Positions 23,935 to 41,030 of a DNA stretch of 43,750 bases are shown here, piece after piece; position 1 is the stretch's first letter, and every line of letters begins with the position of its first letter. The notes beneath the pieces were generated by a model, which was given only the letters and a program-made list of their open reading frames with translations, was not told the DNA's origin and ran no database searches. Source of the DNA: Candidatus Glassbacteria bacterium (GTDB lineage: Bacteria; Gemmatimonadota; Glassbacteria; GWA2-58-10); contig JAZDIG010000253.1 of assembly GCA_043805105.1 (NCBI GenBank), forward strand, positions 1 through 43,750, read 5' to 3'. Position numbers and translations under genes: made by a program.

Positions 23935-26890
23935 CAGGAAGCTCCTGAGTGCGTGGGGAATACGGATATAAAGTTCCAACCTGCGTCCAGGGAAGCGGTT
24001 CACCCCCACGTGCGTGGGGAATACTTCGAGTTCATTCATCAGTTCACCGACCGATACGGTTCACCCCCACGTGCGTGGGGAATACAAGGTGAGCATGAAA
24101 AGATTTCTGGCAGTGAGCGGTTCACCCCCACGTGCGTGGGGAATACTTCAGCAGCAGTTATATAACCACTTTCTTATCCGGTTCACCCCCACGTGCGTGG
24201 GGAATACGTCCGCTGCAAAAGGATCGTCTGCCGCGATCACGGTTCACCCCCACGTGCGTGGGGAATACGTCGTGCCGGCAGAGCCGGCTCTGGATTCGGC
24301 CGGTTCACCCCCACGTGCGTGGGGAATACTTAACAATGAGCGGGATTTCCTCGCCCATTACCGGTTCACCCCCACGTGCGTGGGGAATACGTACGGAAAA
24401 ACCCTTTGAACTGAGGAAAGTCCGGTTCACCCCCACGTGCGTGGGGAATACTCTGCCAGGAGGTCCAGCCCAGGCCGGTGCTACGGTTCACCCCCACGTG
24501 CGTGGGGAATACGTGTTCGAAGATCATACCGTCTTTGCGCTTGACGGTTCACCCCCACGTGCGTGGGGAATACTCTTTCAGGACGAAATCCTTGAACAGC
24601 ATTTTCGGTTCACTCCCACGTGCGTGGGGAATACCAGTCTTTCTACTGGGGCCCTGGGGAATAGCCCGGTTCACCCCCACGTGCGTGGGGAATACTGCTG
24701 CGCCGTTAGGGCTGCTGTTGGCCCGCCCGGTTCACCCCCACGTGCGTGGGGAATACTCCGGGCGGAGTACGGTGAGTTTCTTGCACAGCGGTTCACCCCC
24801 ACGTGCGTGGGGAATACTCCACGTCCGCATGCGGAGCAAAGAGGGGAGACGGTTCACCCCCACGTGCGTGGGGAATACGTACTTGAAACTACTTTGGCAA
24901 GTCTTCCACACGGTTCACCCCCACGTGCGTGGGGAATACGTGAGTACAAGCAATGGACTCCGGTTTCAAAACGGTTCACCCCCACGTGCGTGGGGAATAC
25001 AGGTAGACGTCCACGCTGGCCCGGGTGAGCTGCGGTTCACCCCCACGTGCGTGGGGAATACGCTGGACGGGGCGGGCGTGCTGGCGGGTGGGCGGTTCAC
25101 CCCCACGTGCGTGGGGAATACGCCCTCGTCCTCGTCCTCGCTGTCGTCCTCGGCGGTTCACCCCCACGTGCGTGGGGAATACGTGAGCCGGGCCAGTTTC
25201 CGGCTCCGTGCAATCGGTTCACCCCCACGTGCGTGGGGAATACCTTGAGGCAAACTGTTCCTCGTTGATCGCGTACGGTTCACCCCCACGTGCGTGGGGA
25301 ATACCCGTTCGGCCAGCCAATATTTTCGGTAAATCCCGGTTCACCCCCACGTGCGTGGGGAATACGCTTCGAAGTTGGTATTGTCCGCCCCGTCCCACGG
25401 TTCACCCCCACGTGCGTGGGGAATACGACCGCGACCTTGCGGGGCATTAACCGAATACCGGTTCACCCCCACGTGCGTGGGGAATACTTGAGTTCCCGGC
25501 GTATCAGCTCGATCAGGAACGGTTCACCCCCACGTGCGTGGGGAATACGTGGCGTCAAGTTCCAGGGCGCGGGCCAGGGCCGGTTCACCCCCACGTGCGT
25601 GGGGAATACTAAAGGTAGCCGTGCGTCTTTTCCTGCGTCCACGGTTCACCCCCACGTGCGTGGGGAATACATCCGCGTAATCGCGACACCGGTCGAGAAC
25701 GGCGGTTCACCCCCACGTGCGTGGGGAATACGCCTGTGCCTGAGTAACCGCGACGCGAGACGGCGGTTCACCCCCACGTGCGTGGGGAATACATTTGTTC
25801 AACCATGTCCGTCGTGGTGATCCTCGGTTCACCCCCACGTGCGTGGGGAATACCTGTCACCGGCAGCTTGGAAAGCGCAACCACCCGGTTCACCCCCACG
25901 TGCGTGGGGAATACGAATCGCTCACCACGGTCACGCCCACCTTGATCGGTTCACCCCCACGTGCGTGGGGAATACTTCAGGAAAGCGTTTACTTCACCGA
26001 CCGCTTTCGGTTCACCCCCACGTGCGTGGGGAATACAAGCCCTTGCGGCGCCAGGCCGCATCGCGCGACGGTTCACCCCCACGTGCGTGGGGAATACCTC
26101 CGATTGTTTTCAGTTTCAGGTTAACTTCTCGGTTCACCCCCACGTGCGTGGGGAATACGCCAGAAAAAGCGAGAGAGGCTTTTTTAGAACCGGTTCACCC
26201 CCACGTGCGTGGGGAATACCAATCGCTATCCTGACGATGGCTGCCTGCGTGCGGTTCACCCCCACGTGCGTGGGGAATACTTGGGGGCTTCGGCCAGATC
26301 GGCGCGGACGGCCGGTTCACCCCCACGTGCGTGGGGAATACTGGACGTGGAAGATCTCTACCAGGAAGGCATCCGGTTCACCCCCACGTGCGTGGGGAAT
26401 ACAAGCGCAAGAATGAAATCCTCCAGGCGGGCGACGGTTCACCCCCACGTGCGTGGGGAATACCACTGAGCAGGATGCGCATCCTGTGATCTCCTCGGTT
26501 CACCCCCACGTGCGTGGGGAATACGATGCTGTTGACCCGCGCGGCGTCCGTGGCCCCGGTTCACCCCCACGTGCGTGGGGAATACGCTCCTCTGGAGGAT
26601 CCTATGACGGGGGAGATCGGTTCACCCCCACGTGCGTGGGGAATACCTGGGGAAAAGTTAGGACTTGGCCGGCAGGCGCGGTTCACCCCCACGTGCGTGG
26701 GGAATACCACCCTCTGGTATGTCGGCCCGCAGTACGCCTCGGTTCACCCCCACGTGCGTGGGGAATACCGATCAGGAAGTGCGGAAGATCCGCGAACAGG
26801 CGGTTCACCCCCACGTGCGTGGGGAATACAGAAAGGAACCATCGCCCAGCTTCTTGCACAGCGGTTCACCCCCACGTGCGTGGGGAATAC
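23935..26890 (-). CRISPR. CRISPR array, type I-E-like repeat, 49 repeats / 48 spacers
   Basis: The plus-strand unit CGGTTCACCCCCACGTGCGTGGGGAATAC (29 nt) recurs every 61 nt from 23996 to 26862. The only exception is one 60-nt step at 25033->25093, which gives a 31-nt spacer. The minus-strand form GTATTCCCCACGCACGTGGGGGTGAACCG has the I-E layout: CCCCAC/GTGGGG stem, 8-nt handle ..GTGAACCG. The repeat at 23935-23963 is degenerate (only the 15 nt ..gtgcgtggggaatac are contiguous), marking the old end. One variant repeat occurs at 24606 (cacTcccacg). The leader end abuts cas2. Confidence 0.97.
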
Positions 26891-26908
26891 TCTCGGAGAA
26901 TATTAGAC

Positions 26909-27184
26909 TTACGCCTTCGTTACCAGCTGAAGTCCCTCAAATTCCCTTACCTTCCGGCTGGTATCTCCCCAAGCGTCTATCTTGAAACCCTGCTCGTTAT
27001 TTGTGGTCCAGATCAGCATACAGGCACCACATTCACCAGACTTGTAGCGGACCTTATCCCATAATTTATCTCTGACCAGTGCGCTCAGATTGCCGATGAA
27101 TACTCCGCTCTTCGGCTCAATCATCCATCTGCTTAATTCTCCTTTCAATGATGGACTAACCCGTTCCAGGATCATCAGCACCAT
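26909..27184 (-). CDS. cas2: CRISPR-associated endoribonuclease Cas2 (I-E type)
   Basis: 'MVLMILERVSPSLKGELSRWMIEPKSGVFIGNLSALVRDKLW' aligns with E. coli YgbF '[41 protein letters not shown]'. ATG 27184 is preferred because GGAGGG lies just upstream. An alternative ATG is at 27196. The gene overlaps the cas1 3' end. Confidence 0.85.
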   Translation of the reverse strand: MVLMILERVSPSLKGELSRWMIEPKSGVFIGNLSALVRDKLWDKVRYKSGECGACMLIWTTNNEQGFKIDAWGDTSRKVREFEGLQLVTKA

Positions 27185-28157
27185 CTGTCCCTCCATCTTC
27201 TATTTCATCTGCTGATGGTTCCCCGCCATATCCCCTGCCCCCGGCTACCGGGCCGCGGTTTGGGTCCCACAGTCCTCCAGGGGCTGCCGGGTCGGTATCG
27301 AAATCCGGCTCGGCTGCATCATCCCGCGCCGGTGTGACATCCAGCGCGTAATCGATATCAGCCACAATCTTTTTCAGCAAGCCGCCGGCGGCGAAACTAT
27401 CACGGCAGCGGTAGCGAACTTCCCGTTCGAGGTTAGAGCTGCATTCTGCAGTGGTCTTGAATGCGACCGGTATTGTCAGGTTTACCTTGTACAAATCCGC
27501 TATGTCGTACACAAAAGACAGCTGCTTGCCCGTATGGATAAAGCCAAGTCCGGGAGAATAGCCGGCACTGATGATGGCAGCATGGCATATTCCATATAGG
27601 CAGCTGTTGGCAGCCGATAGCGCCCTGTTCACTCGGTCTGTCGCTTTCCAGTTGTTTCTCTCATAGCTCCTGCCGACCCAAGGCACGCCGGTTTCCCTGG
27701 AGGCGTTGGCATAGGCATCCCGGACCCGAACTCCTTCGCGACCCCTGATCTGCTCGATGGTCAGTGTCTCGGGCAGCGACTCCGGGAAGCGCATCCCATA
27801 CAAACGGCGTACCACCTCCAGCCGGGTGCTCCTGCGGCTGCTCAGGCTGGCTTGTTTGAGAAGGTTGTTGGCATGTCGAGTCTCACCCATTCCTGTTGCG
27901 TAAAATCTTATCCCTTGCTCGCCGCACCAAGCCACCAGGCAGCCGTTATCCGCAAGAGTCATCACTGCCGCGTGGGTTATTGTAGTACCAGGTCCAACCA
28001 TCAGCAGGCTTAGAGTAGCACAGGGAACAGGTGTAATTCCCTGCTGGTCGTGAATTGCGATGGCCTTTGTCTCCTGGTCCACCCGGCAATGCTCGATATA
28101 CATGAAGCTTAGCTTATCCCTGACCTTGGGCAGCTCGTGAAGGTCTTTTATTCTCAT
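27156..28157 (-). CDS. cas1: CRISPR-associated integrase Cas1 (I-E type) with acidic C-terminal tail
   Basis: 'LKDRVS/KVRDKLSFMYIEH', 'GPGTTITHAAVMTLADNGCLVAWCGEQGIRFYA', 'SAANSCLYGICHAAIISAGYSPGLGFIHTGKQLSFVYDIADLYK' and 'EVRYRCRDSF' match E. coli Cas1 block for block. Confidence 0.92.
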   Translation of the reverse strand: MRIKDLHELPKVRDKLSFMYIEHCRVDQETKAIAIHDQQGITPVPCATLSLLMVGPGTTITHAAVMTLADNGCLVAWCGEQGIRFYATGMGETRHANNLLKQASLSSRRSTRLEVVRRLYGMRFPESLPETLTIEQIRGREGVRVRDAYANASRETGVPWVGRSYERNNWKATDRVNRALSAANSCLYGICHAAIISAGYSPGLGFIHTGKQLSFVYDIADLYKVNLTIPVAFKTTAECSSNLEREVRYRCRDSFAAGGLLKKIVADIDYALDVTPARDDAAEPDFDTDPAAPGGLWDPNRGPVAGGRGYGGEPSADEIEDGGTDGADDPGTG

Positions 28158-28168
28158 GTTACCACCGA

Positions 28169-29095
28169 TCAGGAAGAAGGGCGGCTGGGCGCTACAGATA
28201 TCAGCCCAAATCCGAAGGCTTTGCCCGGACCGATTCCACGGATGAGGATCTCCTTCAATCGCTCGGGGTCGGTGACCCGGAGAATCCCCTCGTAGCGAAC
28301 GGAACGCGGGCGGGCCTCATCATACTTCCGTTTGTCTTCCCGCTCCTCTGTCGATCCGTTCCCCGGTTTCTTGAAATAGCTATATCCTGGTTGAACGGTG
28401 ATGAAATCCCTTTCGAGAGAGAACCCTGATATTTCAGCTTGGTGAGCAAGCCAATCAAGGAGCTTAGAGCAGATAAAGGTGCGCACATCTTCATTGGGAT
28501 TGTCGCGGTGCCATTTCTCAATCTCATCCACACTAGGCACTGGGATACGCTTGCCGTGACGTCCTTTGACTGCCCTAAGTTCATCTTTGGTATAGCCCAG
28601 GCGCTCCTTCTTTTTAATGGTGCCGATCTTTTTTGTCGGATTCGCCACAAACCGGAATCGAAGGCGCTGACCTTCAGTAAAGCAGGGATCGATTTCCTTG
28701 CACTCCCAAGGAGCCGCCAGAAGATGACTGGCGTTGTGAAAGGCATAATCCCAATCTGGTTTCTTGGCGGACTGCACGAGGATCACCACCCGGCCGCCGG
28801 GCTGCGGATCGATGCGAAATAGAAAGCCCCGGTCCACATCCCGTCGAGCGTGTACGTCCTTGAGTATTTCCTGCTCAACTTCCTTGGCGGATCGGTCGGC
28901 CAGATGCCGCTGCTCGGGGAAGTCCTCCGGGCAGTACGGAGACAGAAAGTCCCTGTCAGTGCTTTTGCGTGAATCAGACGGGAACCCCATGCACAGGCGC
29001 TGATGGACCCGGTAGAGGTTCCGCAGCCACAGCCGTCCGGGTCGTGGGCGGTCAGGGTTGTCGCCTACATCGATTGTAAGACGAGAAAGGAACAT
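28169..29095 (-). CDS. cas6e: Cas6e (CasE/Cse3) pre-crRNA endoribonuclease, enlarged (308 aa)
   Basis: 'MFLSRLTID....LRNLYRVHQRLCMGFP' and C-terminal 'YEGILRVTDPERLKEILIRGIGPGKAFGFGLISVAP' match E. coli CasE 'MYLSKVII..RDLYQLHQGLWHLFP' and 'FEGVLTINDAPALIDLVQQGIGPAKSMGCGLLSLAP'. The ATG directly follows the cas5 stop (TAAATG). Confidence 0.88.
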   Translation of the reverse strand: MFLSRLTIDVGDNPDRPRPGRLWLRNLYRVHQRLCMGFPSDSRKSTDRDFLSPYCPEDFPEQRHLADRSAKEVEQEILKDVHARRDVDRGFLFRIDPQPGGRVVILVQSAKKPDWDYAFHNASHLLAAPWECKEIDPCFTEGQRLRFRFVANPTKKIGTIKKKERLGYTKDELRAVKGRHGKRIPVPSVDEIEKWHRDNPNEDVRTFICSKLLDWLAHQAEISGFSLERDFITVQPGYSYFKKPGNGSTEEREDKRKYDEARPRSVRYEGILRVTDPERLKEILIRGIGPGKAFGFGLISVAPSRPSS

Positions 29096-30208
29096 TTATA
29101 ACTCCTTTCGCGCAGTTCTTAGCAATTTGCGCCGTTGGCCATAGCGTCGCTCTTTGAGATTGCGCTCTATCTGGCGACGTATCATCTGGCGTTGGGCCGG
29201 ATCCGAGGGATCGAGCCGCCGCCTCCGCATATCTCCACCATACTCCAGCATGGTGCAGGCATCGTGGCATGTCTTGCAAAGGGATCGAAGCCATTCATTA
29301 GTTTCTGGTTTCGAATAGTCAACATGATGCACATCTCTGGCTGGCGCCTTGCAGAATACGCAGAGGCCTTGATCGAGTTTCAGACGGTTACGCCGCGCAT
29401 CATCCCACTGCTGAGATGTATAATCGGGCCGTCGCAGATAGAGTTTGGTAGATAGATTCTGAGTCGCTTTTCCCACTGGCGCTGTGACTTGATTTGAGAC
29501 GATCCATCGCGGATCATAACTGTAGTAAAAGCCTAAAGCTCGTGGGACATCGTATGCAAGCCGTGCGCCAGTTGGAACAGAATTCCCCTTCGGGTGCTCG
29601 ATAAAAGTGTCGAGAATGACTGATGCATGCGACTGGGGGTTGTCAATGGCATCAATCCTCGGGTACCAGGGGATAGAGGAAAGAGCCTCAATAACAGTCT
29701 CAAAATGCCCGAGACCTGCAAAGACCGGCTCAGACGGGACGCAACACTTACGGCCGAGGAAGACCGGCCATTTAGGGTTTTTTACCCAATCAGCACAAGC
29801 GTTGACCGTGTCGGGAGAGCCGAGGAGCGTTATCAGAAAGGATGCATCGTACAGGTATTGGCGACGGGAAAGGAGCGTCTCGTATTCACGGGTCGATGGA
29901 GTCCTCTTGAGACCCCCGTCCTTGCCGTCTGCACGGCGTATGCCGATTTTGGCTCCAGCCGTTTGGTAATCCCAGGCCAAGCTTCCAGCACGGTCCACTC
30001 GGACTCCCATGAACAGTTCCGTAAGCGGCTTGAGATGTTGCGGAGATTCTTCGCGACTGATCCCCTTGGCACAAAGCAACATCCCCAATACGCCGGATTT
30101 GCTCGGATAGGCGTCAGTACGACGTAACTGGAAGCGTGACGAGGTTCCCCAGGACTGCATGGGACCAGCCAGGCGCAGGAACAGAGTATTGTTGTCATCT
30201 TTACTCAT
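29096..30208 (-). CDS. cas5: Cas5e (CasD) fused to a C-terminal HNH nuclease domain and Arg-rich tail
   Basis: Start taken at ATG 30208, which has GGAG 8 nt upstream and lies 4 nt after the cas7 stop. 'LFLRLAGPMQSWGTSS...YPSKSGVLGMLLCAKGI' and 'RRQYLYDASFLITL..PVFLGRKCCVP' match E. coli CasD 'LILRLAGPMQAWGQPT..FPTRSGLLGLLGACLGI' and 'REYLCDASFTVAL..TPYLGRRSCP'. After about 240 aa comes 'CVFCKAPARDVHHVDYSKPETNEWLRSLCKTCH', a CxxC..HH..N..CxxCH HNH motif. The protein ends with 'RRRRLDP..RRQIERNLKERRYGQRRKLLRTARKEL'. Confidence 0.88.
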   Translation of the reverse strand: MSKDDNNTLFLRLAGPMQSWGTSSRFQLRRTDAYPSKSGVLGMLLCAKGISREESPQHLKPLTELFMGVRVDRAGSLAWDYQTAGAKIGIRRADGKDGGLKRTPSTREYETLLSRRQYLYDASFLITLLGSPDTVNACADWVKNPKWPVFLGRKCCVPSEPVFAGLGHFETVIEALSSIPWYPRIDAIDNPQSHASVILDTFIEHPKGNSVPTGARLAYDVPRALGFYYSYDPRWIVSNQVTAPVGKATQNLSTKLYLRRPDYTSQQWDDARRNRLKLDQGLCVFCKAPARDVHHVDYSKPETNEWLRSLCKTCHDACTMLEYGGDMRRRRLDPSDPAQRQMIRRQIERNLKERRYGQRRKLLRTARKEL

Positions 30209-30212
30209 ACAA

Positions 30213-31484
30213 TTACTCCGCTCTTTCATGCGTGGATATAAGAACAGTGACTGAATGAATGAGATCATCCAGTGTGCCGACTCGTTCAGCGTTTTTGGAC
30301 TCGACCGAAGCTGGTCCTACGGCCAGAAGTACCCTGCGCATATCAGCCGGCGAGAAGGCCGCCGCGATAACCTCAACGTACTCCTTCATCGCCTTTGCGG
30401 ATTCAGTCATCAGGTTTCGATCAGTCCCGCCTTCCACAGGCTGAAGAAACGCATTGGCATAACTGAGCGGTCGCTTTGAGTTGGACACTTCGACGAGAAT
30501 TAGTTCGGGGATGGAGTGCGCGGCAAACCCACTTTGCTTCCCGGTGGGGGTTGCGTAACAGGCGGCATTAATCAGAACACCTGCCACTCGCGCGGCATCC
30601 TTGCTGCTCAGGGTTGGAAGGTGCTTCCTCAAAGCATCGACGTCAAAATTAAGATACTTATAATAAACCGCCGCGTTAAAGTACGTCTCGGTCTCACCAG
30701 AGCCGAGATACGCCGCACCGGATTTTTCAGTCTGGGTTGATGCATAACTGCTTTTCAAATCATCCATCGCAGTGAAGTAGTCGCTCTCGATAAACGTCTC
30801 GTGAGTGCTTATCGCGTGGGCAACCTGGCACGCCGCCTCAACGTTAACAACCAGATCGCTGGTTGTCATTCTTCCGAACAGGCCGATATCAACCGTTAGA
30901 GAATTGCTTGCGATGGACGCCTCCTCGATAAAATGCTTAATCGATTTATCAAGTGCCTTCTTTTCTTCCTTCGAGGGCTTTTTCCCCTGCTTGATGAACC
31001 AATCGTAGGCTGCGCGATTACTTTTTCTGAATTCGGCTATCAGCCCGGCAATGCTGTGAGCAAAGGGTGGGGGAAAGAAAACCAGTTGGGAAGTCTTACC
31101 GTCCTCATCGCCCACCGATGTCAATGTCTCGGGTTCGTCTTTTTCATCACCATCAGCCGGGGTATCCCCGGTGTCGCGGTCATCCCCCTTGAATTTCCCG
31201 GCCAATGCGTTCATGAGTTTATCTATCTCATCGCCAGGAACGCCAAGGTTCCCCTTTTTAAGTTCGTCGGCTACCATCCGCGGCAGGTATTGCGTTCTGA
31301 CCGCGAGGTCATCACCGAAAACTTCCTTGAACTGGGGTGACAGGCGAATGTTTCGCTTCAGGCATTGGCTGCTAATACGGCCACGAGTCACTCCCCCAAA
31401 CAGACATTTTTTCGGCTGTCCGGTTTCGTCACGGTTAAGATTGCCTGGCGGCATGCTCTGGAGCATATGAATCTGAACAAACAT
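30213..31484 (-). CDS. cas7: Cas7e (CasC/Cse4) Cascade backbone subunit, enlarged (423 aa)
   Basis: 'FVQIHMLQSMPPGNLNRDETGQPKKCLFGGVTRGRISSQCLKRNIR' matches E. coli CasC '[45 protein letters not shown]'. 'GLFGRMTTSD...HAISTH' matches 'ALSGRMATSG..HAITTH'. A strong SD (AAGGAGGAGG) precedes the ATG. Confidence 0.92.
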   Translation of the reverse strand: MFVQIHMLQSMPPGNLNRDETGQPKKCLFGGVTRGRISSQCLKRNIRLSPQFKEVFGDDLAVRTQYLPRMVADELKKGNLGVPGDEIDKLMNALAGKFKGDDRDTGDTPADGDEKDEPETLTSVGDEDGKTSQLVFFPPPFAHSIAGLIAEFRKSNRAAYDWFIKQGKKPSKEEKKALDKSIKHFIEEASIASNSLTVDIGLFGRMTTSDLVVNVEAACQVAHAISTHETFIESDYFTAMDDLKSSYASTQTEKSGAAYLGSGETETYFNAAVYYKYLNFDVDALRKHLPTLSSKDAARVAGVLINAACYATPTGKQSGFAAHSIPELILVEVSNSKRPLSYANAFLQPVEGGTDRNLMTESAKAMKEYVEVIAAAFSPADMRRVLLAVGPASVESKNAERVGTLDDLIHSVTVLISTHERAE

Positions 31485-31513: not shown

Positions 31514-33139
31514 TTAAAGCAGTCGATCAAGGCTAAAACAGAGGCCCGCCCAGTCGACTTTTTCTGGCATTCGCCGACGCATATTACTGTCGAGGGCGCT
31601 ACGAAGAGCGGCTTCCAGTCTTTGGCCGCGCGGGAATGAAACCGGGTACGGTGAATGGAAAGTTCGGCCCTGGTGGCGCTCGTCAGGTTGTCGCCTCAGC
31701 AATGAGCGCAACAGACAGAAAGTAGCATCAGCACGAGGAATGCGGGCGCGAGAGGGTACAGCGGCCATGAGCTTTAACACCAGCCACGCCACGTTTGGCG
31801 AAGGAAGCCCTTTTACAGTCCGGCGCAGCGGCCAGAGCAGACCAGTCAGGATGTCGAAAGCCGCTGGAGATTCTTGCATCTCCAGGTATGCGGCGGATGA
31901 CAATACAACCCAATCCGAATGCATGAGATGCCGAACCGCCGACAGTACAAACCGCTCTGAACCAACAGAACGAGATTTCTGTAGTGGTATCTTCCATCCG
32001 TCGAATCCCGTGGGTTTGTTATCAGGTTGCTTATTGTGAAGCATGTCCAGGGAAGGGTTAGTCAATTCAAGCTGTCGATGATCAAATGTCTTGTTATCAC
32101 TACCTGTGCAGGGAATTACCAAGTACCAAGACTGGTGGTCAGGATTTTGCACACAAACAGCCGCTTTAAAATCCGCACCCGAAAAGAGCAGGTCGCAGTC
32201 TTTCACAGCCAGCTCCTCACGCGTGCTTTTCATCGTCTTATAAGGATTTCCTTCGGTGTAAAAGGCTGCGGGGTCTTTCCACATAAAGGACTTTTTATCT
32301 GGGGTCTTCTTTGTCTCCTCGTTCTTCATATACACTATCGACTCGACTACGCTGCCGGGTTGGCCGCATCCCCAGCAGATTTGCGTGTTTTGAGACAATG
32401 AAAGTCGGATGCGCCTGGGGTTCCATGTAAACGCCTCCATATAAGGAATTGCTCTATCCTTAGCGGTTGGCTTAAAATAACCAGTCCACATTGGAGTGCC
32501 TGCAACACCGGTAAGGGGAACGAGATTAAGGCCAAGCGTGTTCGCCAGGTTGTTCCCGGAGGCGATTGCCACTATCGGAGGAGCACCGTGTATGGAAGGA
32601 GTCAGTCCTTGGCCGCCTGATTGGGTCCACGGGACGATACGGAGCATGCCGATTGTCGCACACCGCAAGCAAAGGCGCATGTTTTTGTCGTCACCGTGAT
32701 GAAAATGAGCGATGTTGCTGCCAGTCGCGAACTCGGCGAACAATGAGCCGACTGACTTGATTGTCGAGGTTTTCCTTTGAGCAGAAGGGTCTTGCAGAAA
32801 TGGGGCTGTTTCATCAAACATTCTGAAGTAGCCTTCTTCTTTTTCAATGGACTCAAGGACTTCTTGCGGCACTTCATCCCTTAGCAGCGATCCGCGGACT
32901 TTTTGCACCCCTCCCGCTTCATCAGCCTTCCAATAAAGCAGTGTCAGAAGAAAACGGTGTGCAGAAAAAAAATCGAGGGGACTCGCGAAAGCAAGGCAGT
33001 GCATTTCTCTTGCCCTTCTCAATGCATCCAGTGGAGAGTAGACCATCTCCACGGCATATTGATTAATCAACTTCAACCATGGGCTGGTAAGAACATTCCA
33101 GTTCGCTCCCTGGCAGAATTCTTTCACTGTATCAGACAT
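31514..33139 (-). CDS. cas8e: Cas8e (Cse1/CasA)-like large subunit
   Basis: First gene of the operon, about 541 aa from ATG 33139 (GGAG 6 nt upstream; the track's TTG 33169 is less likely). The N-terminal 'NVLTSPWLKL....SPLDAL....ASPLDFFSAHRFLLTLLYW' follows the Cse1 N-terminal pattern (N-L-[IL]-x-x-x-W-[IL]-P-V ... hydrophobic LL..L). The remainder was not matched to a motif from memory. Confidence 0.7.
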   Translation of the reverse strand: MSDTVKEFCQGANWNVLTSPWLKLINQYAVEMVYSPLDALRRAREMHCLAFASPLDFFSAHRFLLTLLYWKADEAGGVQKVRGSLLRDEVPQEVLESIEKEEGYFRMFDETAPFLQDPSAQRKTSTIKSVGSLFAEFATGSNIAHFHHGDDKNMRLCLRCATIGMLRIVPWTQSGGQGLTPSIHGAPPIVAIASGNNLANTLGLNLVPLTGVAGTPMWTGYFKPTAKDRAIPYMEAFTWNPRRIRLSLSQNTQICWGCGQPGSVVESIVYMKNEETKKTPDKKSFMWKDPAAFYTEGNPYKTMKSTREELAVKDCDLLFSGADFKAAVCVQNPDHQSWYLVIPCTGSDNKTFDHRQLELTNPSLDMLHNKQPDNKPTGFDGWKIPLQKSRSVGSERFVLSAVRHLMHSDWVVLSSAAYLEMQESPAAFDILTGLLWPLRRTVKGLPSPNVAWLVLKLMAAVPSRARIPRADATFCLLRSLLRRQPDERHQGRTFHSPYPVSFPRGQRLEAALRSALDSNMRRRMPEKVDWAGLCFSLDRLL

Positions 33140-33170
33140 TTGACACTCCATCTGATTGATCACTGGCAAC

Positions 33171-33413: not shown

Positions 33414-33840
33414 GAGGAACTCCTTTCTGGCCTGAAGGTATTGGATAAGAACTCAAGGTCTTAAATGAACAATCAAGGTCAACCTCTTTTCATTCGTCCT
33501 ATTCACCTCCTTATTGCCAGATCGCTTTCATTCAGGCCGGGTAGTCCAGCATTACGACTCAGCTTGCCGAGTGATTCCATCATCAAGAATGCCGGAAAAT
33601 AAGCGATTATCGATCAGGAGAAGTCTGAGGGGGATAATTTATTATATAACGTATATCGTGATAACGCTATGCCTTGCGATGGAAAGTCTACTGATTAGAT
33701 TAATTGTATGCCATTTGCTGTCTTTTTACACAGTCTTGCTTGATTTATATCTTAATAAAAAGAAGTTTGTTGAGAATAATTCCTTGTATTCGCTTGTTTT
33801 TTCCCCTGAAGCAAATAAATCAGCCAGCAAAGGACGAAAA

Positions 33841-34392
33841 ATGAACGCCAAACTATCAGTTGACCCCAAGAAACTGAAAGACGCATTAAAGAAGATCAAA
33901 CTGTCAGACCGCAGATTTTCAGTGGGAGAGGCGGCTTTTTCTTTCAATGATGGCTGGTTGGAATTACAGGCACAAGGAGTTTCAGTTCAAATCACTGCCT
34001 CTGGAACCTGGCCCGGAAGGGTGCGAGTGAGCTTGTACAATCTCAGACCAATGCTTTCACATCCGCCGAAGGAAAATCCTTTGCTTATTCGTTTCCAGGA
34101 CGACCTTTTGTTTTTCGGTTCGTACTCTGTTTCTGCCCAATGGGAGGATATCAGCCCGCAGCCAGAATTAATTCCGATGGGCCTGTCATGGGTAGAGCTG
34201 TTGAAGCTAAGGTTCGAGTATCCAGAAGCGGCACTGATAAGCTCGGGAATGGCCCCAAAAATCGCTATGGCCGAGAAAAAATTTGAAATCAGGATTTCCA
34301 AAGCTGCGGCTCTTCTGGTCGAGACGGGAGTTAAGGAACAGGATCTGATGGAATTGGTTGTAGGTAAATTGGGAGAATCAAAAAAACGTTAG
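33841..34392 (+). CDS. Hypothetical protein (183 aa)
   Basis: The track ORF 33514..34392 starts at TTG inside an AT-rich, low-complexity stretch. ATG 33841 ('MNAKLSVDPKKLKDALKK') is the first plausible start. No family recognised. Confidence 0.5.
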   Translation: MNAKLSVDPKKLKDALKKIKLSDRRFSVGEAAFSFNDGWLELQAQGVSVQITASGTWPGRVRVSLYNLRPMLSHPPKENPLLIRFQDDLLFFGSYSVSAQWEDISPQPELIPMGLSWVELLKLRFEYPEAALISSGMAPKIAMAEKKFEIRISKAAALLVETGVKEQDLMELVVGKLGESKKR

Positions 34393-35126: not shown

Positions 35127-35750
35127 CTACATTTGATCTTGAGCGCCATTTCTCACAATCTCCAATCCCTGCTTTTTCCGGTGGGCGTCCAGCCGCTGTT
35201 GAGCCAGCTCCAGTTGCTTGCCCAAGTCAGGCCGCTCTTCCTTGCGCGCCTTGTCGATAAACTTGCCGAGCACCCGGCCGTAGAGCTCCAACGCCTTCTC
35301 CTTGCTCGCGAATGACAGCTCCATGCGCTCTTCCACAGCCTCCCCGAGCTTGGTCGGGTAGCGCCGCACGGTACGCCGCACGCTCTTGATCGCGGCCGCC
35401 GTCTGGTCGTCGATGTCGGCGCTCGACTTGAAGGTCACGCCGGCATCCGTCCACTCGACGGCACGGCGTATATCGAACACGCACAGCCGGGCCAACTCCT
35501 GCATCCAGCGCTCAGAGTCCAGATCGATCTTTTTCAGTAGCTTGGTAGTCAACTCATTGATGCGCGCGCGAATCTCAGGTTTTTTCAGCAGTCTATTAGC
35601 AAGTGTCGCTGCCGAATTGCGTGCCAGATGCGACCGCAAATCCAAAGCAGCCACGGTTCCGTTGCGTTTCTGCTTGAGGTACTCGTGGCAGAATTCTTCC
35701 TCGAAACTACTCAATCCACACTTATTGGTTGCATGATCTTGCGTTGACAT
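35127..35750 (-). CDS. Phage terminase small subunit (Terminase_2 / P27-like)
   Basis: 'FCHEYLKQKRNGTVAA...SAATLANRLLKKPEIRARINELT....ERWMQELARLCVFDIR' matches the terS pattern F[C]xEYLxxxNxTxAA...A...LLxxPxIxxxI...vlxELaxIAFxD. ATG 35750 is preferred; the track's start at 35771 is a TTG. Confidence 0.75.
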   Translation of the reverse strand: MSTQDHATNKCGLSSFEEEFCHEYLKQKRNGTVAALDLRSHLARNSAATLANRLLKKPEIRARINELTTKLLKKIDLDSERWMQELARLCVFDIRRAVEWTDAGVTFKSSADIDDQTAAAIKSVRRTVRRYPTKLGEAVEERMELSFASKEKALELYGRVLGKFIDKARKEERPDLGKQLELAQQRLDAHRKKQGLEIVRNGAQDQM

Positions 35751-36125
35751 ATTTGCATCCCTTCTTATCAAATTTTAAGCGCCAACTTATCAAAACCTTA
35801 CCGGTTTTGGTAATTTCACCCTGATAGCTTAGTTATCTGAATGTGTACATCTTGATCTTTCTCTCTAATTCATGCAGTCTACATACTTCTGCCCCTTTTG
35901 TTCAATCTTGTAGGAATTGAAATTAGTAGTCGCAAATGTCGAACAAAGAATTAATTCAGTCTCCACAATAGACGATTACTTTGCCAGACCTTGCCAAAAT
36001 CCATGTGAATTCTTGGCAATCTTGTGAGTTCTTGACAATCGACCCGAAAACGAGCAAATGCGGCAGCCATGCGGCTTTGGGTTTGTTTTCAACAGGTTAC
36101 GAGTTTTCTAATAATACCATAACTA

Positions 36126-38794: not shown

Positions 38795-39275
38795 GGCGCT
38801 GTTGTGGAAATGGCGATGAATACTGGATATGCACTTGCTTTTCTACCTGTTAGCGATACACTTAAGTAGTAATTGATTCGACCGACAGAAAGGAAGAGCA
38901 TGCCTAACCGGTTTACCCATGAAGAAGCAGCGCAGTACATCAAGATAGGCAGGCGTGGCGGTTCTATTTGAATAAGTAGGCCTATGGCTCAGGGCAGGGA
39001 AGTTGGAGAAAAAGGCAAACAACACATATTAGGGAATGACTTATGAGCGAAGGAGCGAACATTAGGCAAGCCTGGAATGCCTTGAGAGCAACCTTCCAGA
39101 CACCAACTACCGATTTACTTTTAGAGTCATATATGATACGCTACTTCGAGAGGTAGGGACTCAACGTAATACCTCGTTTGGCTGTTCAATTCAACGTCAT
39201 TGATCGAAACAGCTTGGCAGCTTAATCGCAACTTAGCTAAATTATTGGAAAGTTTGATCAGAATGAGAATAAAGA

Positions 39276-39920
39276 ATGCCATTTCCCAAAATTGGAACAA
39301 TTGAAGCTTTTGCAATGATAGTTGATATAAATGGCTTTACGCCGATGGTATCAAAGTCGACAAAAAGTGACTGTGTCGCTCAATTTGTCAGAGATGTTCT
39401 ATCGGGGGGCGTTTGCATTGTTGAAAAAAACGGTGGTTTTGTCACTAGTTTCATGGGCGATGCCTTTTTAGGCATATTAGATAACCCTGATTCAGTTTTT
39501 ATGTCATGTGTAGGAATAGCTAAAGATCTTGATCGGCAGTGCGAATATATATCTAACCATCAGAAGGAATATCTCAATGATTTGCATTATGTTAAAGGTG
39601 GAGCGGGATTAAAAATCGCAATAGAATATGGTTGGATAGACATTTCAACTATCTATAGTGACCTGCTCGGAGAACAAAGGTTGCTAATTGGGCCACCTAT
39701 TAATTATGCAAGCCGGATTTTATCAGTTGGAGTAGGAAATAGGTGTCTCGTCGGACCAGAAGCAATGAATAATCAAGGGATGAATCAATGGAACAATAAT
39801 GGACCTTATTCTGTAATTGTTAAGCCAAGCGAAGGCGATTTACTATATTGGGAACTGGACTTAGGAGATATTTGGAGAGAAGGAATAATTGAGAATGATG
39901 AGGAAACATATTGGGGATAA
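39276..39920 (+). CDS. Stand-alone class III nucleotidyl cyclase catalytic domain (214 aa)
   Basis: 'AFAMIVDINGFTPM' supplies the first metal Asp, 'GGFVTSFMGDAFLGIL' the second, and 'IGPPINYASRIL' the Asn/Arg of the N-x-A-S-R motif. These occur in the order and spacing of adenylate/guanylate-cyclase-type domains. No sensor or TM domain. The gene sits in an AT-rich islet. Confidence 0.7.
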   Translation: MPFPKIGTIEAFAMIVDINGFTPMVSKSTKSDCVAQFVRDVLSGGVCIVEKNGGFVTSFMGDAFLGILDNPDSVFMSCVGIAKDLDRQCEYISNHQKEYLNDLHYVKGGAGLKIAIEYGWIDISTIYSDLLGEQRLLIGPPINYASRILSVGVGNRCLVGPEAMNNQGMNQWNNNGPYSVIVKPSEGDLLYWELDLGDIWREGIIENDEETYWG

Positions 39921-40005
39921 AGTGTGATCTTTCTAATCTAATACATCTGACTCAAGCTTTGTTGTACTTCACGCAATATACCTTAATTTAGAGGCTATAA
40001 CTACT

Positions 40006-40815
40006 ATGAATTTCTCAGAGATTGAAAAAGAAGTAATTTACTTAAGAGCCGTTAAGGAGATTGTGGACTCAATGGTGAATTATGAGGTGCTTAATTTAAT
40101 TGGAAATGATCCTGATTCAGAAATTAGATTTAAATCGAGTATACACCAGAAATTTTTCAATATTATTTTGGTGGATTTTTTTTCGTCCCCAGGTAAGAAA
40201 TTTATTATAAAACAGCAGCCATATTTAGAAATCCTATTTTTGATATGCCAGAAACCGAACTTCAACGAAAACGGGTCTATTAATAATCTTGTATTGTCAG
40301 TTGAAGAGTTTAAAAATTGGCTTGAGCAGGAAATTAAAGAGGAGATTTGGTTGCCTTCAATAGAAATGAATGGAGTCTTGTCACTAAAAAGAATTGAGTT
40401 TTTAAAAATATGCGGAAATATTTCAAAACATAATTTTACTAGATTGTCTATTGCAGTGAAGCAGCTTGAGCAGATTTTTAAAAGAAATAAGTTAAGTATT
40501 GATTGTGAAGACGCCTTGCTTATTCTTGATGAATTTTACGAGATATATCATACAGATATTTTCAATTATCTCGGTAGTACTATTGCTGAGTTTCTTAATA
40601 ATATTAGATGGGGTATATATTATTATCTCCAGCCAGAGTTTTCGCGCTCAATAAAATGGGAGAGTGGAGATCCGCCAAAATATAAGTATACATACCCAAA
40701 GGGTTTAATAAATAAGTTTGCAAAAAGTTGCTATTTGAAGTTGATGAATGAAGTACGTAGTGAACCATACATGAGAAAATTCAAAGTTACAGAGATATTG
40801 AAACTAAGATATTAA
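40006..40815 (+). CDS. Hypothetical protein (269 aa), partner of the cyclase
   Basis: AT-rich ORF 85 nt downstream of the cyclase on the same strand. No TM segments, TIR, cNMP-binding (FGE..RxA) or canonical HEPN R-x4-6-H motif recognised. 'ICGNISKHNFTR' is only HEPN-reminiscent. Confidence 0.55.
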   Translation: MNFSEIEKEVIYLRAVKEIVDSMVNYEVLNLIGNDPDSEIRFKSSIHQKFFNIILVDFFSSPGKKFIIKQQPYLEILFLICQKPNFNENGSINNLVLSVEEFKNWLEQEIKEEIWLPSIEMNGVLSLKRIEFLKICGNISKHNFTRLSIAVKQLEQIFKRNKLSIDCEDALLILDEFYEIYHTDIFNYLGSTIAEFLNNIRWGIYYYLQPEFSRSIKWESGDPPKYKYTYPKGLINKFAKSCYLKLMNEVRSEPYMRKFKVTEILKLRY

Positions 40816-41030
40816 GCTATAAGGATAGGGAAATTAAGTGTGCTTGACAGGCCTTAGTCTGACAGTTCATATTTGACTGGCTATATCAAATTTAGCATCG
40901 CTTACCGCTTCCCTCACAAAAACTTGTATTCTCTCAAAATTTATGGTATGATAATTAAAATCGGATTCATTCGGCAAGACGTTTTAAATGGCGTTATGCC
41001 TTACGCTTCAACAAGTTAAAGGTTTATTAT

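Follow-up and report, generated by a model that had tools for sequence, protein, structure and literature searches.

The window, by which we mean the whole 43,750-nucleotide stretch of a Candidatus Glassbacteria MAG that was analysed, carries a CRISPR-Cas locus on its minus strand in the order cas8(-cas11 fusion), cas7, cas5-HNH, cas6, cas1, cas2, CRISPR array. The effector and adaptation genes were assigned by their Pfam matches: cas8e (31514..33169; CRISPR_Cse1, E=8e-30), cas7e (30213..31484; Cas_CT1975, E=9e-92), cas6e (28169..29095; CRISPR_assoc, E=8e-40, and a phmmer match to PDB chain 8yb6_B, E=2.3e-48), cas1e (27156..28157; Cas_Cas1, E=4e-17) and cas2e (26909..27196; Cas_Cas2CT1978, E=1.8e-29), a 95-aa gene overlapping the end of cas1. 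The array (23935..26890) consists of 48 intact 29-nt repeats (GTATTCCCCACGCACGTGGGGGTGAACCG) and one degenerate terminal repeat, so that 49 type I-E repeats enclose 48 spacers; the repeats are almost perfectly uniform, and their hairpin has a folding energy of -11.7 kcal/mol. Since the array has a period of 61 nt, its spacers are 32 nt long. A comparison of the whole array with 50,697 phage records yielded no protospacer match, and no self-targeting spacer was found in the window at up to 4 mismatches.

A canonical type I-E locus is expected to include cas3 and a free cas11 gene for the small subunit. Across the 43.75-kb contig, a Pfam scan of ORFs 150 aa or longer that were neither antisense nor overlapping the array gave no cas3 or helicase match; because the contig is no longer than this, cas3 could lie elsewhere in the genome. 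Three related loci (L001, L003 and L004) have the same layout on contigs of up to 1.1 Mb, and no cas3 was found in their flanks, which span 8-10 kb at most and less at contig ends. The Cas11 small subunit is present solely as the C-terminal domain of Cas8: residues 25-308 match the Cas8 of Candidatus Cloacimonetes bacterium ADurb.Bin088 (hereafter Cc; E=3e-5) and residues 407-543 match the Cc Cas11 chain 8yb6_K (E=8e-6), and the 30-bp gap between cas8 and cas7 holds no separate cas11 gene. Fused Cas8-Cas11 forms have been mentioned previously (PMC10910872). Types I-B, I-C and I-D make a free Cas11 from an internal start within cas8; this route was considered here and is not supported: the sole in-frame ATG near the Cas11 boundary (M376) lacks an upstream Shine-Dalgarno-like sequence and is conserved in neither of the two homologous cas8 genes used for comparison.

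The third effector gene, cas5-HNH (29096..30208), encodes a Cas5e-HNH fusion subunit of 370 aa, followed by a stop codon, as identified by ORF, Pfam, TIGRFAM and phmmer analysis. The enclosing ORF (29096-30268) would give 390 aa if counted from its first ATG; translation more probably begins with the ATG at 30208, 5 nt past the cas7 stop (30213-30215), with which the 370-aa length given in the first-pass annotation is borne out. The N-terminal part (residues 1 to ~245; 29474..30208) is a Cas5e domain, scoring 149 bits against TIGR01868 (casD_Cas5e; cut-off 69) and matching the Cascade Cas5e chains 6c66_M, 5u0a_N and 4u7u_K in Foldseek. The earlier estimate that this part ends at about residue 240 holds approximately for the fold, as the final Cas5 strand of the full-length model comprises residues 234-245, but not for the Pfam match (Cas_Cas5d, PF09704; E=2.2e-37), which covers only residues 8-202. 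A linker follows (residues ~246-265; 29414..29473), delimited by the model and by BLASTP alignment to Cc; it has no regular secondary structure in the full-length model, and its residues R260, D262 and Y263 are the counterparts of Cc R275, D277 and Y278. Neither a stop nor a frameshift separates the Cas5 and HNH parts, and the in-frame fusion is genuine. NCBI annotates the protein as just 'Cas5/CasD'.

By phmmer, residues 6-363 align with residues 5-381 of 8yb6_A, the solved Cc protein, in one stretch (E=5.8e-69; PDB 8yb6/8zlu), a match well beyond chance, and full-length identity to this Cc orthologue (P0128) is 40%. At least 120 independent full-length homologues (352-395 aa) were recovered from NCBI, JGI, ENA and Logan assemblies. 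Among the best 150 cluster representatives at 50% identity, 42 are at least 290 aa long, most of them with the match at the C-terminus, and a Cas5 N-terminal domain was present in 7/7 of the long representatives scanned. The nearest sequence relatives outside Cas5 are short stand-alone proteins.

The HNH domain (residues 266-370; 29099..29413) is predicted by modelling and Foldseek to comprise a helix, a beta-beta-alpha core and two C-terminal helices. A domain-only AlphaFold model (pLDDT 86) places strands at residues 292-295 and 307-310 and a helix at 312-322, and superposes on the solved Cc HNH domain with TM 0.75-0.82 and rmsd 1.3-2.1 Å (TM 0.78-0.82 and 44% identity for 8zlu_B and 8yb6_A); the full-length model retrieves Cas5-HNH Cascade structures at E about 1e-25. 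The next Foldseek match, and the best outside Cas proteins, is the phage GVE2 HNH (5h0m; E=4e-3, probability 1.0; rmsd 1.5 Å over 72 columns, 30% identity), and further matches include McrA (6ghc), T4 endonuclease VII (1e7l), Cap5 and IscB, with a weak match (E about 1) to the I-F HNH 9siu_A. In the model, strand 1 ends with the general-base His and the helix bears the metal-ligand His, which supports membership of the beta-beta-alpha-metal superfamily, and the fold model and Foldseek results uphold the Cys4 zinc site and nuclease fold proposed in the first-pass annotation. The HNH-profile search that it had called for came out below threshold: the isolated domain scores 11.7 bits against Pfam HNH (PF01844; E=0.3), under the gathering threshold of 21.4. 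Because the Cc orthologue (23.7 bits) and two further proteins (P0131 and P0145) pass this cut-off, the link of the present protein to the profile is transitive. An NCBIfam search of the domain also gave no HNH model match. Since neither Pfam nor NCBIfam confirms the HNH domain by itself, it was assigned from its predicted fold and from its homologues of solved structure.

The HNH core (C283-x2-C286, H294-H295, N304-E305-W306, C311-x2-C314-H315) was examined in the sequence and in an alignment of 120 homologues. Its coordinates, 29264..29362, are exactly those first given, all eight residues then named (C283, C286, H294, H295, N304, C311, C314 and H315) are found in the 370-aa numbering, and the peptide quoted with them, RRNRLKLDQGLC...CHDAC, corresponds to residues 272-318 (29255-29395). 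The four cysteines C283, C286, C311 and C314 are invariant in the 120 homologues and correspond to the Cc zinc ligands C298, C301, C329 and C332, and H294, H295 and H315 show little or no variation. By phmmer and BLASTP, H295 (present in 120/120) aligns with Cc H310 and H315 (119/120) with Cc H333. In Cc, the four cysteines, H310 and H333 are all essential by experiment, and H310, D324 and H333 are the catalytic residues; the present protein thus keeps both histidines that have a demonstrated catalytic role in that orthologue. Counterparts of other residues tested in Cc are likewise retained (R260/D262/Y263, K287, M320 and R340). The CKHPA sequence of 8zp9 was considered as a catalytic-His mutant and rejected, as the wild type reads CKAPA, the same as in the window, and the catalytic residues lie elsewhere.

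The reading of N304 as the 'N' of H-N-H is doubtful, since phmmer, BLASTP and MAFFT all pair the essential Cc D324 with W306 (TGG codon, 29291-29293), and N304 stands opposite a Pro. The D324 position is occupied by Asp in 76/120 homologues, and in 36/120 a shorter loop ending in 'ET' ('PETLRSLC') has no Asp; W306 is the sole Trp at this position among the 120 closest homologues. The neighbouring E305 is shared with Cc (E323), and the same 'E-W-L' motif precedes the second Cys pair in P0168 and P0174, two related HNH proteins that stand alone. Apart from W306 and the lack of a separate cas11, the locus has no peculiarities of its own.

The C-terminal 45 residues (29099..29233) had been described as an Arg-rich tail with 15 Arg/Lys. 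Their basic character is evident, but the count is 17, and rather than an appendage they form two conserved helices of the HNH domain (337-354 and 358-369 in the models) that superpose on the solved domain. In this region R331, D333, P334, D336, P337, R340, R349, R355, R359, R360, L363 and R367 are nearly invariant, and it holds counterparts of Cc M338 and R358 (the latter being R340 here), which contact Cas11 and Cas6, R358 touching Cas6. On the partner side, residues 2-60 of Cas6e align with residues 3-61 of Cc Cas6, the N-terminal segment that contacts the HNH domain in Cc through D16/R17/P18, R33/R34 and H50/F51/K53.

Taken together, the ORF product is very probably a Cas5-HNH subunit, belonging to a CRISPR-Cas system of type I-E2 ('HNH-Cascade'). 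The gene structure, homology, fold, Cys4/His conservation and locus composition observed here include several features of that type: a Cas5e N-terminus with a homologous in-frame HNH domain retaining the Cys4 set and both His, a cas8e/cas7e/cas6e effector with an I-E array, a Cas11 module, and the absence of cas3 within the contig. As a system it is nothing new, and the novelty implied by the first-pass annotation is superseded: Cas5-HNH was discovered in 2023 (Altae-Tran et al. Science, PMC10910872) and formally named as variant I-E2 in the Makarova 2025 classification. The locus is a further member of this already known family. Cryo-EM structures of the Cc complex followed in 2024-25 (PDB 8yb6, 8yha, 8zlu, 8zm3, 8zol, 8zp7, 8zp9 and 9jxs), and papers on Cas5-HNH include Liu et al. 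2025 Nat Commun (PMC11794572), on Cc, and Zhang et al. 2024 Mol Cell, the latter as represented in PMC11822464 and PMC12669027.

The Cc and Glassbacteria systems are alike in their Cas5e, linker, Cys4 HNH and two C-terminal helices, in their zinc cysteines, both catalytic His and linker/Cas6/Cas11-contact residues, and in their I-E partner genes, lack of cas3 and 32-nt spacers. They differ in the residues ahead of and including the general base ('HH' here, 'QH' in Cc), in an inter-strand loop that is 3 residues shorter here, in W306 for the essential D324, and in the Pfam HNH score, which passes the cut-off in Cc but not here. Moreover, the effector comprises 4 genes here, with the Cas11-like domain as the Cas8 C-terminus, and 5 in Cc, and the cas1 and cas2 adaptation genes adjoin the locus here.

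The Cc orthologue is the only one whose HNH site has been shown to cut dsDNA precisely in a crRNA-guided, PAM-dependent manner, and complex assembly, geometry, cleavage positions and actual nuclease activity of the Glassbacteria system are inferred from homology to it. On this basis, Cas6e would process 61-nt repeat-spacer units, and Cas8(-Cas11), six Cas7, Cas5-HNH and Cas6 would assemble on the crRNA, the Cas5 domain capping the 5' handle. On its linker of ~20 residues, the HNH domain would reach into the belly, where it would lie beside Cas6 and the Cas11-like module. Once the PAM has been recognised and the R-loop is complete, the single HNH site would cut first the target and then the non-target strand slightly past the PAM-distal end, producing a precise double-strand break. 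H295 would act as general base, H294 and H315 would serve with an acidic or amide residue as metal ligands, and the Cys4 zinc site would provide structural support. HNH cutting would thereby take the place of Cas3, which is absent from the contig.

The non-significant Pfam HNH match is what might suggest that the extension is a zinc ribbon without catalytic function, or that the fusion was created by misassembly or a spurious frameshift. This reading is already refuted by the fold and homology results and has practically no probability left: the predicted beta-beta-alpha fold resembles solved HNH nucleases, both catalytic His are kept, the C-terminal placement of the match in most long representatives and their Cas5 domains speak for a true fusion, and an artefact is excluded because at least 120 independent assemblies share the architecture. 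The geometry envisaged in the first-pass annotation, in which the nuclease would remain next to Cas5 at the crRNA 5' handle and cleave where the R-loop begins on the PAM-proximal side, is very improbable. The Cas5 body does bind the 5' handle, in the Cc structure as well, but cleavage sites of the homologous Cc complex were mapped PAM-distal (PMC10910872), and cryo-EM shows the Cc HNH domain on a long linker in the 'belly', where it replaces the second Cas11 and lies between Cas6 and Cas11, up against Cas6. Cc R275, D277 and Y278 contact Cas11 and the DNA 5' end, and the linker and Cas6/Cas11-contact residues are kept here.

A third alternative accepts the family assignment and holds that this orthologue is catalytically attenuated or dead through W306, acting as a DNA binder or silencer, or decaying. 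In Cc, cleavage is lost in the D324A mutant and weakened in D324N, all three alignment methods put W306 opposite D324, the Trp is unique among the 120 closest homologues, and the Pfam HNH score is sub-threshold here and above the cut-off in Cc. Against this, all other catalytic and structural residues are intact, E305 adjoins W306 as the equivalent of Cc E323, the Asp is naturally missing in 36/120 homologues and hence not family-universal, and the stand-alone relatives share 'E-W-L'. The 48 spacers, near-uniform repeats and intact cas1/cas2 also argue for a live system. Attenuation or loss of activity is rather unlikely.

The I-E2 effector can be compared with other type I and HNH systems. 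Canonical I-E Cascade-Cas3 (E. coli, T. fusca; 4qyz, 5u07) has the same Cas5e, Cas6e, Cas7e, Cas8e, Cas1e and Cas2e families, 29-nt hairpin repeat ending ...AACCG 3' and 32-nt spacers. It differs in that the present contig has neither cas3 nor a free cas11 and that Cas5 here has ~125 additional C-terminal residues with a predicted nuclease domain; a precise double-strand break is expected here, in place of processive shredding there. In the I-F4 Cas8-HNH Cascade (Selenomonas sp.) and IV-A2 DinG-HNH, an HNH domain was recruited independently into a class 1 effector, replacing or complementing Cas3-type nucleases like Cas5-HNH, but inserted in Cas8f or DinG rather than in Cas5 and on another subtype backbone; I-F4 Cas8-HNH also cuts PAM-distally, as in Cas5-HNH (Hirano et al. 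2024, PMC11459484). Phage GVE2 HNH, McrA and T4 endonuclease VII share the beta-beta-alpha-metal fold and Cys4 zinc site, but are not RNA-guided and have neither the Cas5 domain nor the two C-terminal docking helices.

Because a separate cas11 is absent, the composition of the belly may differ from that of the solved complex. It is conceivable, if on balance unlikely, that the orthologue belongs to a large I-E2 clade (at least 120 clusters at 90% identity, with an invariant 'HH' and a four-gene effector with Cas8-Cas11) that is unrepresented among solved PDB chains or the I-E2 papers cited here. If so, the belly, with one Cas11-like module and the HNH domain, could be built unlike that of the five-gene Cc complex, and in this particular protein, with Trp for the essential Asp, E305 or N304 could take over in the active site, or the site could be attenuated by nature; in either case a variant way of building the active site or the complex would emerge that might be useful for compact genome editors.

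It is established for the family that Cas5-HNH makes a type I system a precise double-strand cutter rather than a Cas3-dependent shredder, and collateral ssDNA cleavage and human-cell editing have been reported for Cas5-HNH Cascades (PMC10910872). The 'Cas5/CasD' label in NCBI and a domain that Pfam HNH misses illustrate why variants of this kind are under-annotated, as the 2025 classification (Makarova 2025) likewise notes. To this family the locus adds modestly: an orthologue from Candidatus Glassbacteria that shares 40% identity with the characterised protein, a compact effector of four genes in which Cas8 and Cas11 are fused, and a natural Trp where Cc has an essential Asp.

The cas5-HNH open reading frame occupies 29096-30268 on the minus strand and encodes 390 aa if the first ATG is used. 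The ATG at 30208 gives a 370-aa protein (29096-30208), numbered as in the first-pass annotation, and the stop codon of the upstream cas7 ORF lies at 30213-30215. The in-frame Cas5e-HNH fusion proposed in that annotation is borne out, since the frame stays open through both domains up to the stop codon at 29096-29098. Every residue of its motif (C283-x2-C286, H294-H295, N304, C311-x2-C314-H315) is found in the translation, the core coordinates 29264-29362 match the codon span of these residues exactly, and the peptide that it quoted corresponds to residues 272-318. Its Cas5 boundary at about residue 240 needs a small correction, as the Cas5 fold reaches about residue 245 in the model, and the last 45 residues contain 17 rather than 15 Arg/Lys. 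NCBI labels the identical protein 'type I-E CRISPR-associated protein Cas5/CasD', from a Candidatus Glassbacteria MAG.

The Cas5e part alone was recognised by Pfam (PF09704, E=2e-37) and NCBIfam (TIGR01868, 149 bits). When all PDB sequences were searched, residues 6-363 aligned in one stretch to a solved 388-aa 'CasD' chain (E=5.8e-69; entries 8yb6, 8yha, 8zlu, 8zm3, 8zol and 8zp7). [quoted passage not shown] The whole-protein AlphaFold2 model (pLDDT 75, and ~90 or more across most of the HNH core) retrieved 8yb6-type 'CasD' chains with Foldseek (E about 1e-25). Modelled alone, residues 259-370 (pLDDT 86) form a helix, strands at 292-295 and 307-310, a helix at 312-322 and then two more helices. 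Foldseek matched this model to the solved Cc HNH domain (TMq 0.75-0.82, rmsd 1.3-2.1 Å, 42-45% identity) and to the phage GVE2 HNH endonuclease 5h0m (E=4e-3, probability 1.0, rmsd 1.5 Å), followed by McrA, T4 endonuclease VII, CBASS Cap5 and IscB/Cas9 HNH domains. As judged by homology and predicted fold, these matches rule out that the extension is a mere non-catalytic zinc ribbon. On the isolated domain the Pfam HNH profile scored 11.7 bits (E=0.3), below its cut-off of 21.4, which the Cc orthologue and others reach; the tie to this profile is transitive, and the profile by itself would have missed the HNH identity.

On the minus strand of the window, the gene order is cas8 (31514-33169), cas7 (30213-31484), cas5-HNH, cas6 (28169-29095), cas1 (27156-28157) and cas2 (26909-27196), followed by a CRISPR array (23935-26890, minus strand) of 48 intact 29-nt repeats with a period of 61 nt, closed by a single degenerate repeat. 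The repeat, GTATTCCCCACGCACGTGGGGGTGAACCG, carries the I-E hairpin and ...AACCG 3' end. No cas3 was detected on the contig among ORFs of at least 150 aa scanned against Pfam, and a separate cas11 gene is absent from the locus. The identical six-gene layout, without cas3 or cas11, recurs in three related loci: L001 (contig of 197 kb), L003 and L004 (contig of 1.1 Mb). The cas2 side of the array is leader-proximal, because the degenerate terminal repeat stands at 23963-23935. The cas2 stop codon (26909-26911, minus strand) lies ~18 bp upstream of the first repeat (26890-26862); this gap leaves no free-standing leader, so leader and promoter functions would need to share sequence with the cas2 3' end. 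Plus-strand 'ORFs' of 150-300 aa at 24132-27064, with repetitive translations ('HPHVRGEY...GSPPRAWGI...RFTPTCVGNT'), are artefacts of opposite-strand read-through of the repeats and not genes. Array spacers had no protospacers in the phage collection searched, and no self-targeting spacers were found in the window.

Cas8 (551 aa) has an N-terminal Cas8e domain, and residues 25-308 match Cc Cas8. Its C-terminal ~140 residues resemble the separate Cc Cas11 (Cse2) chain, not the Cc Cas8 C-terminal domain: residues 407-543 match chain 8yb6_K (E=8e-6), and the counterparts of Cc W46 and R49 are conserved. The cas8 gene showed no conserved internal start codon, leaving production of free Cas11 by internal translation unsupported. 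One Cas11-like module and the HNH domain may fill the belly of the complex encoded here.

The window locus is a correct rediscovery of the known Cas5-HNH system. This orthologue is uncharacterised; the family, mechanism, structure and fused-Cas11 sub-form are already published. Zhang et al. (Mol Cell 2024) reportedly dissected the system structurally. The variant's discovery is due to Altae-Tran et al. (Science 2023; PMC10910872), its structure was dissected by Liu et al. (Nat Commun 2025; PMC11794572), and the 2025 CRISPR-Cas classification places it as variant I-E2 (PMC12669027). The testable membership features were all found, with two exceptions: the Pfam HNH cut-off is not reached directly, and the middle catalytic residue is ambiguous, W306 being aligned with Cc D324.

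The Cc system performs RNA-guided, PAM-dependent dsDNA cleavage, demonstrated in E. coli and human cells as well as in vitro, which mutation of HNH catalytic residues abolishes (PMC10910872). It cuts PAM-distally, 3-4 bp past the protospacer on the target strand and 8 bp past it on the non-target strand, and also shows collateral ssDNA cleavage (PMC10910872). In the Cc cryo-EM structures, the Cas5 body occupies the crRNA 5' handle, and the HNH domain reaches the belly via a long linker and takes the place of the second Cas11, clamped between Cas6 and Cas11. H310, D324, H333 and all four cysteines are essential in Cc. H310 and H333 correspond to window H295 and H315, C298/C301/C329/C332 to C283/C286/C311/C314, K302, M338 and R358 to K287, M320 and R340, and the linker residues R275/D277/Y278 to R260/D262/Y263. 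At its N-terminus, the window Cas6 closely matches in alignment the segment that bears the HNH-contact residues in Cc Cas6. With the Cc counterparts kept in Cas5-HNH, Cas6 and the Cas11-like domain, the window complex would be expected to share the Cc architecture and to cut PAM-distally. This expectation contradicts the earlier idea that the nuclease sits PAM-proximally, where the R-loop begins. The supposed 'Arg-rich tail' is instead a pair of conserved helices within the HNH domain, whose Cc counterparts are part of the Cas6/Cas11 interface; their basic residues may add to the positively charged groove reported in HNH-Cascade complexes.

The essential Cc D324 stands immediately before the 'LRxLC' strand and pairs with W306 in a window loop three residues shorter than that of Cc; N304, formerly read as the motif 'N', pairs with a Cc Pro. 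Among the 120 closest homologues this position is Asp in 76, while 36 have the shorter loop ending '...PETLRSLC' and thus no Asp there; Trp is found only in the window protein. The W306 codon is TGG (29291-29293, minus strand), three base changes from an Asp codon, so a single sequencing error does not account for it. Replacement of an experimentally essential Asp could mean that the enzyme is attenuated or inactive, but this appears quite improbable: the remaining catalytic residues are all intact, E305 is common to Cc (E323) and the short-loop homologues, and the stand-alone HNH relatives P0168 and P0174 have the same 'E-W-L' motif. The long array of near-perfectly uniform repeats adjoining intact cas1 and cas2 also speaks against it. 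Cas5-HNH is probably catalytically competent.

Elsewhere on the contig, a sharp low-GC island (39000-41000; GC 0.32-0.385 versus about 0.55 elsewhere) is probably a horizontally acquired cassette, and holds two plus-strand ORFs lacking Pfam matches (214 aa, 39276-39920; 269 aa, 40006-40815). A phage small-terminase gene (35127-35771, minus strand; PF03592, E=2.6e-20) lies ~2 kb upstream of cas8, adjoined by a plus-strand ORF of 292 aa lacking a Pfam match (33514-34392); no other phage genes were seen among the contig ORFs scanned.

The best 120 database matches (clusters at 90% identity) are 352-395 aa long and 59-67% identical to Cas5-HNH at 91-100% query coverage. The underlying assemblies, from NCBI, JGI, ENA and Logan, represent Deltaproteobacteria, Planctomycetota, Terriglobia, Desulfobaccales and other taxa. 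The fusion is not an artefact, and it is not rare in metagenomes. Some relatives are much longer, such as P0131 (458 aa) and P0132 (532 aa), the latter with ~100 extra N-terminal residues and ~85 beyond the HNH match; its length suggests further fusions inside the family. The HNH domain alone, searched against 1.84 billion cluster representatives (50% identity), gave 183 matches at E of 1e-3 or better. Among the best 150 of these, 42 have a length of 290 aa or more, mostly with a C-terminal match, and all seven of these long proteins that were scanned have a Cas5 N-terminal domain. The others are mostly short (<290 aa), either fragments or small Cys4 HNH proteins that stand alone, and the HNH domain of Cas5-HNH probably derives from such proteins.
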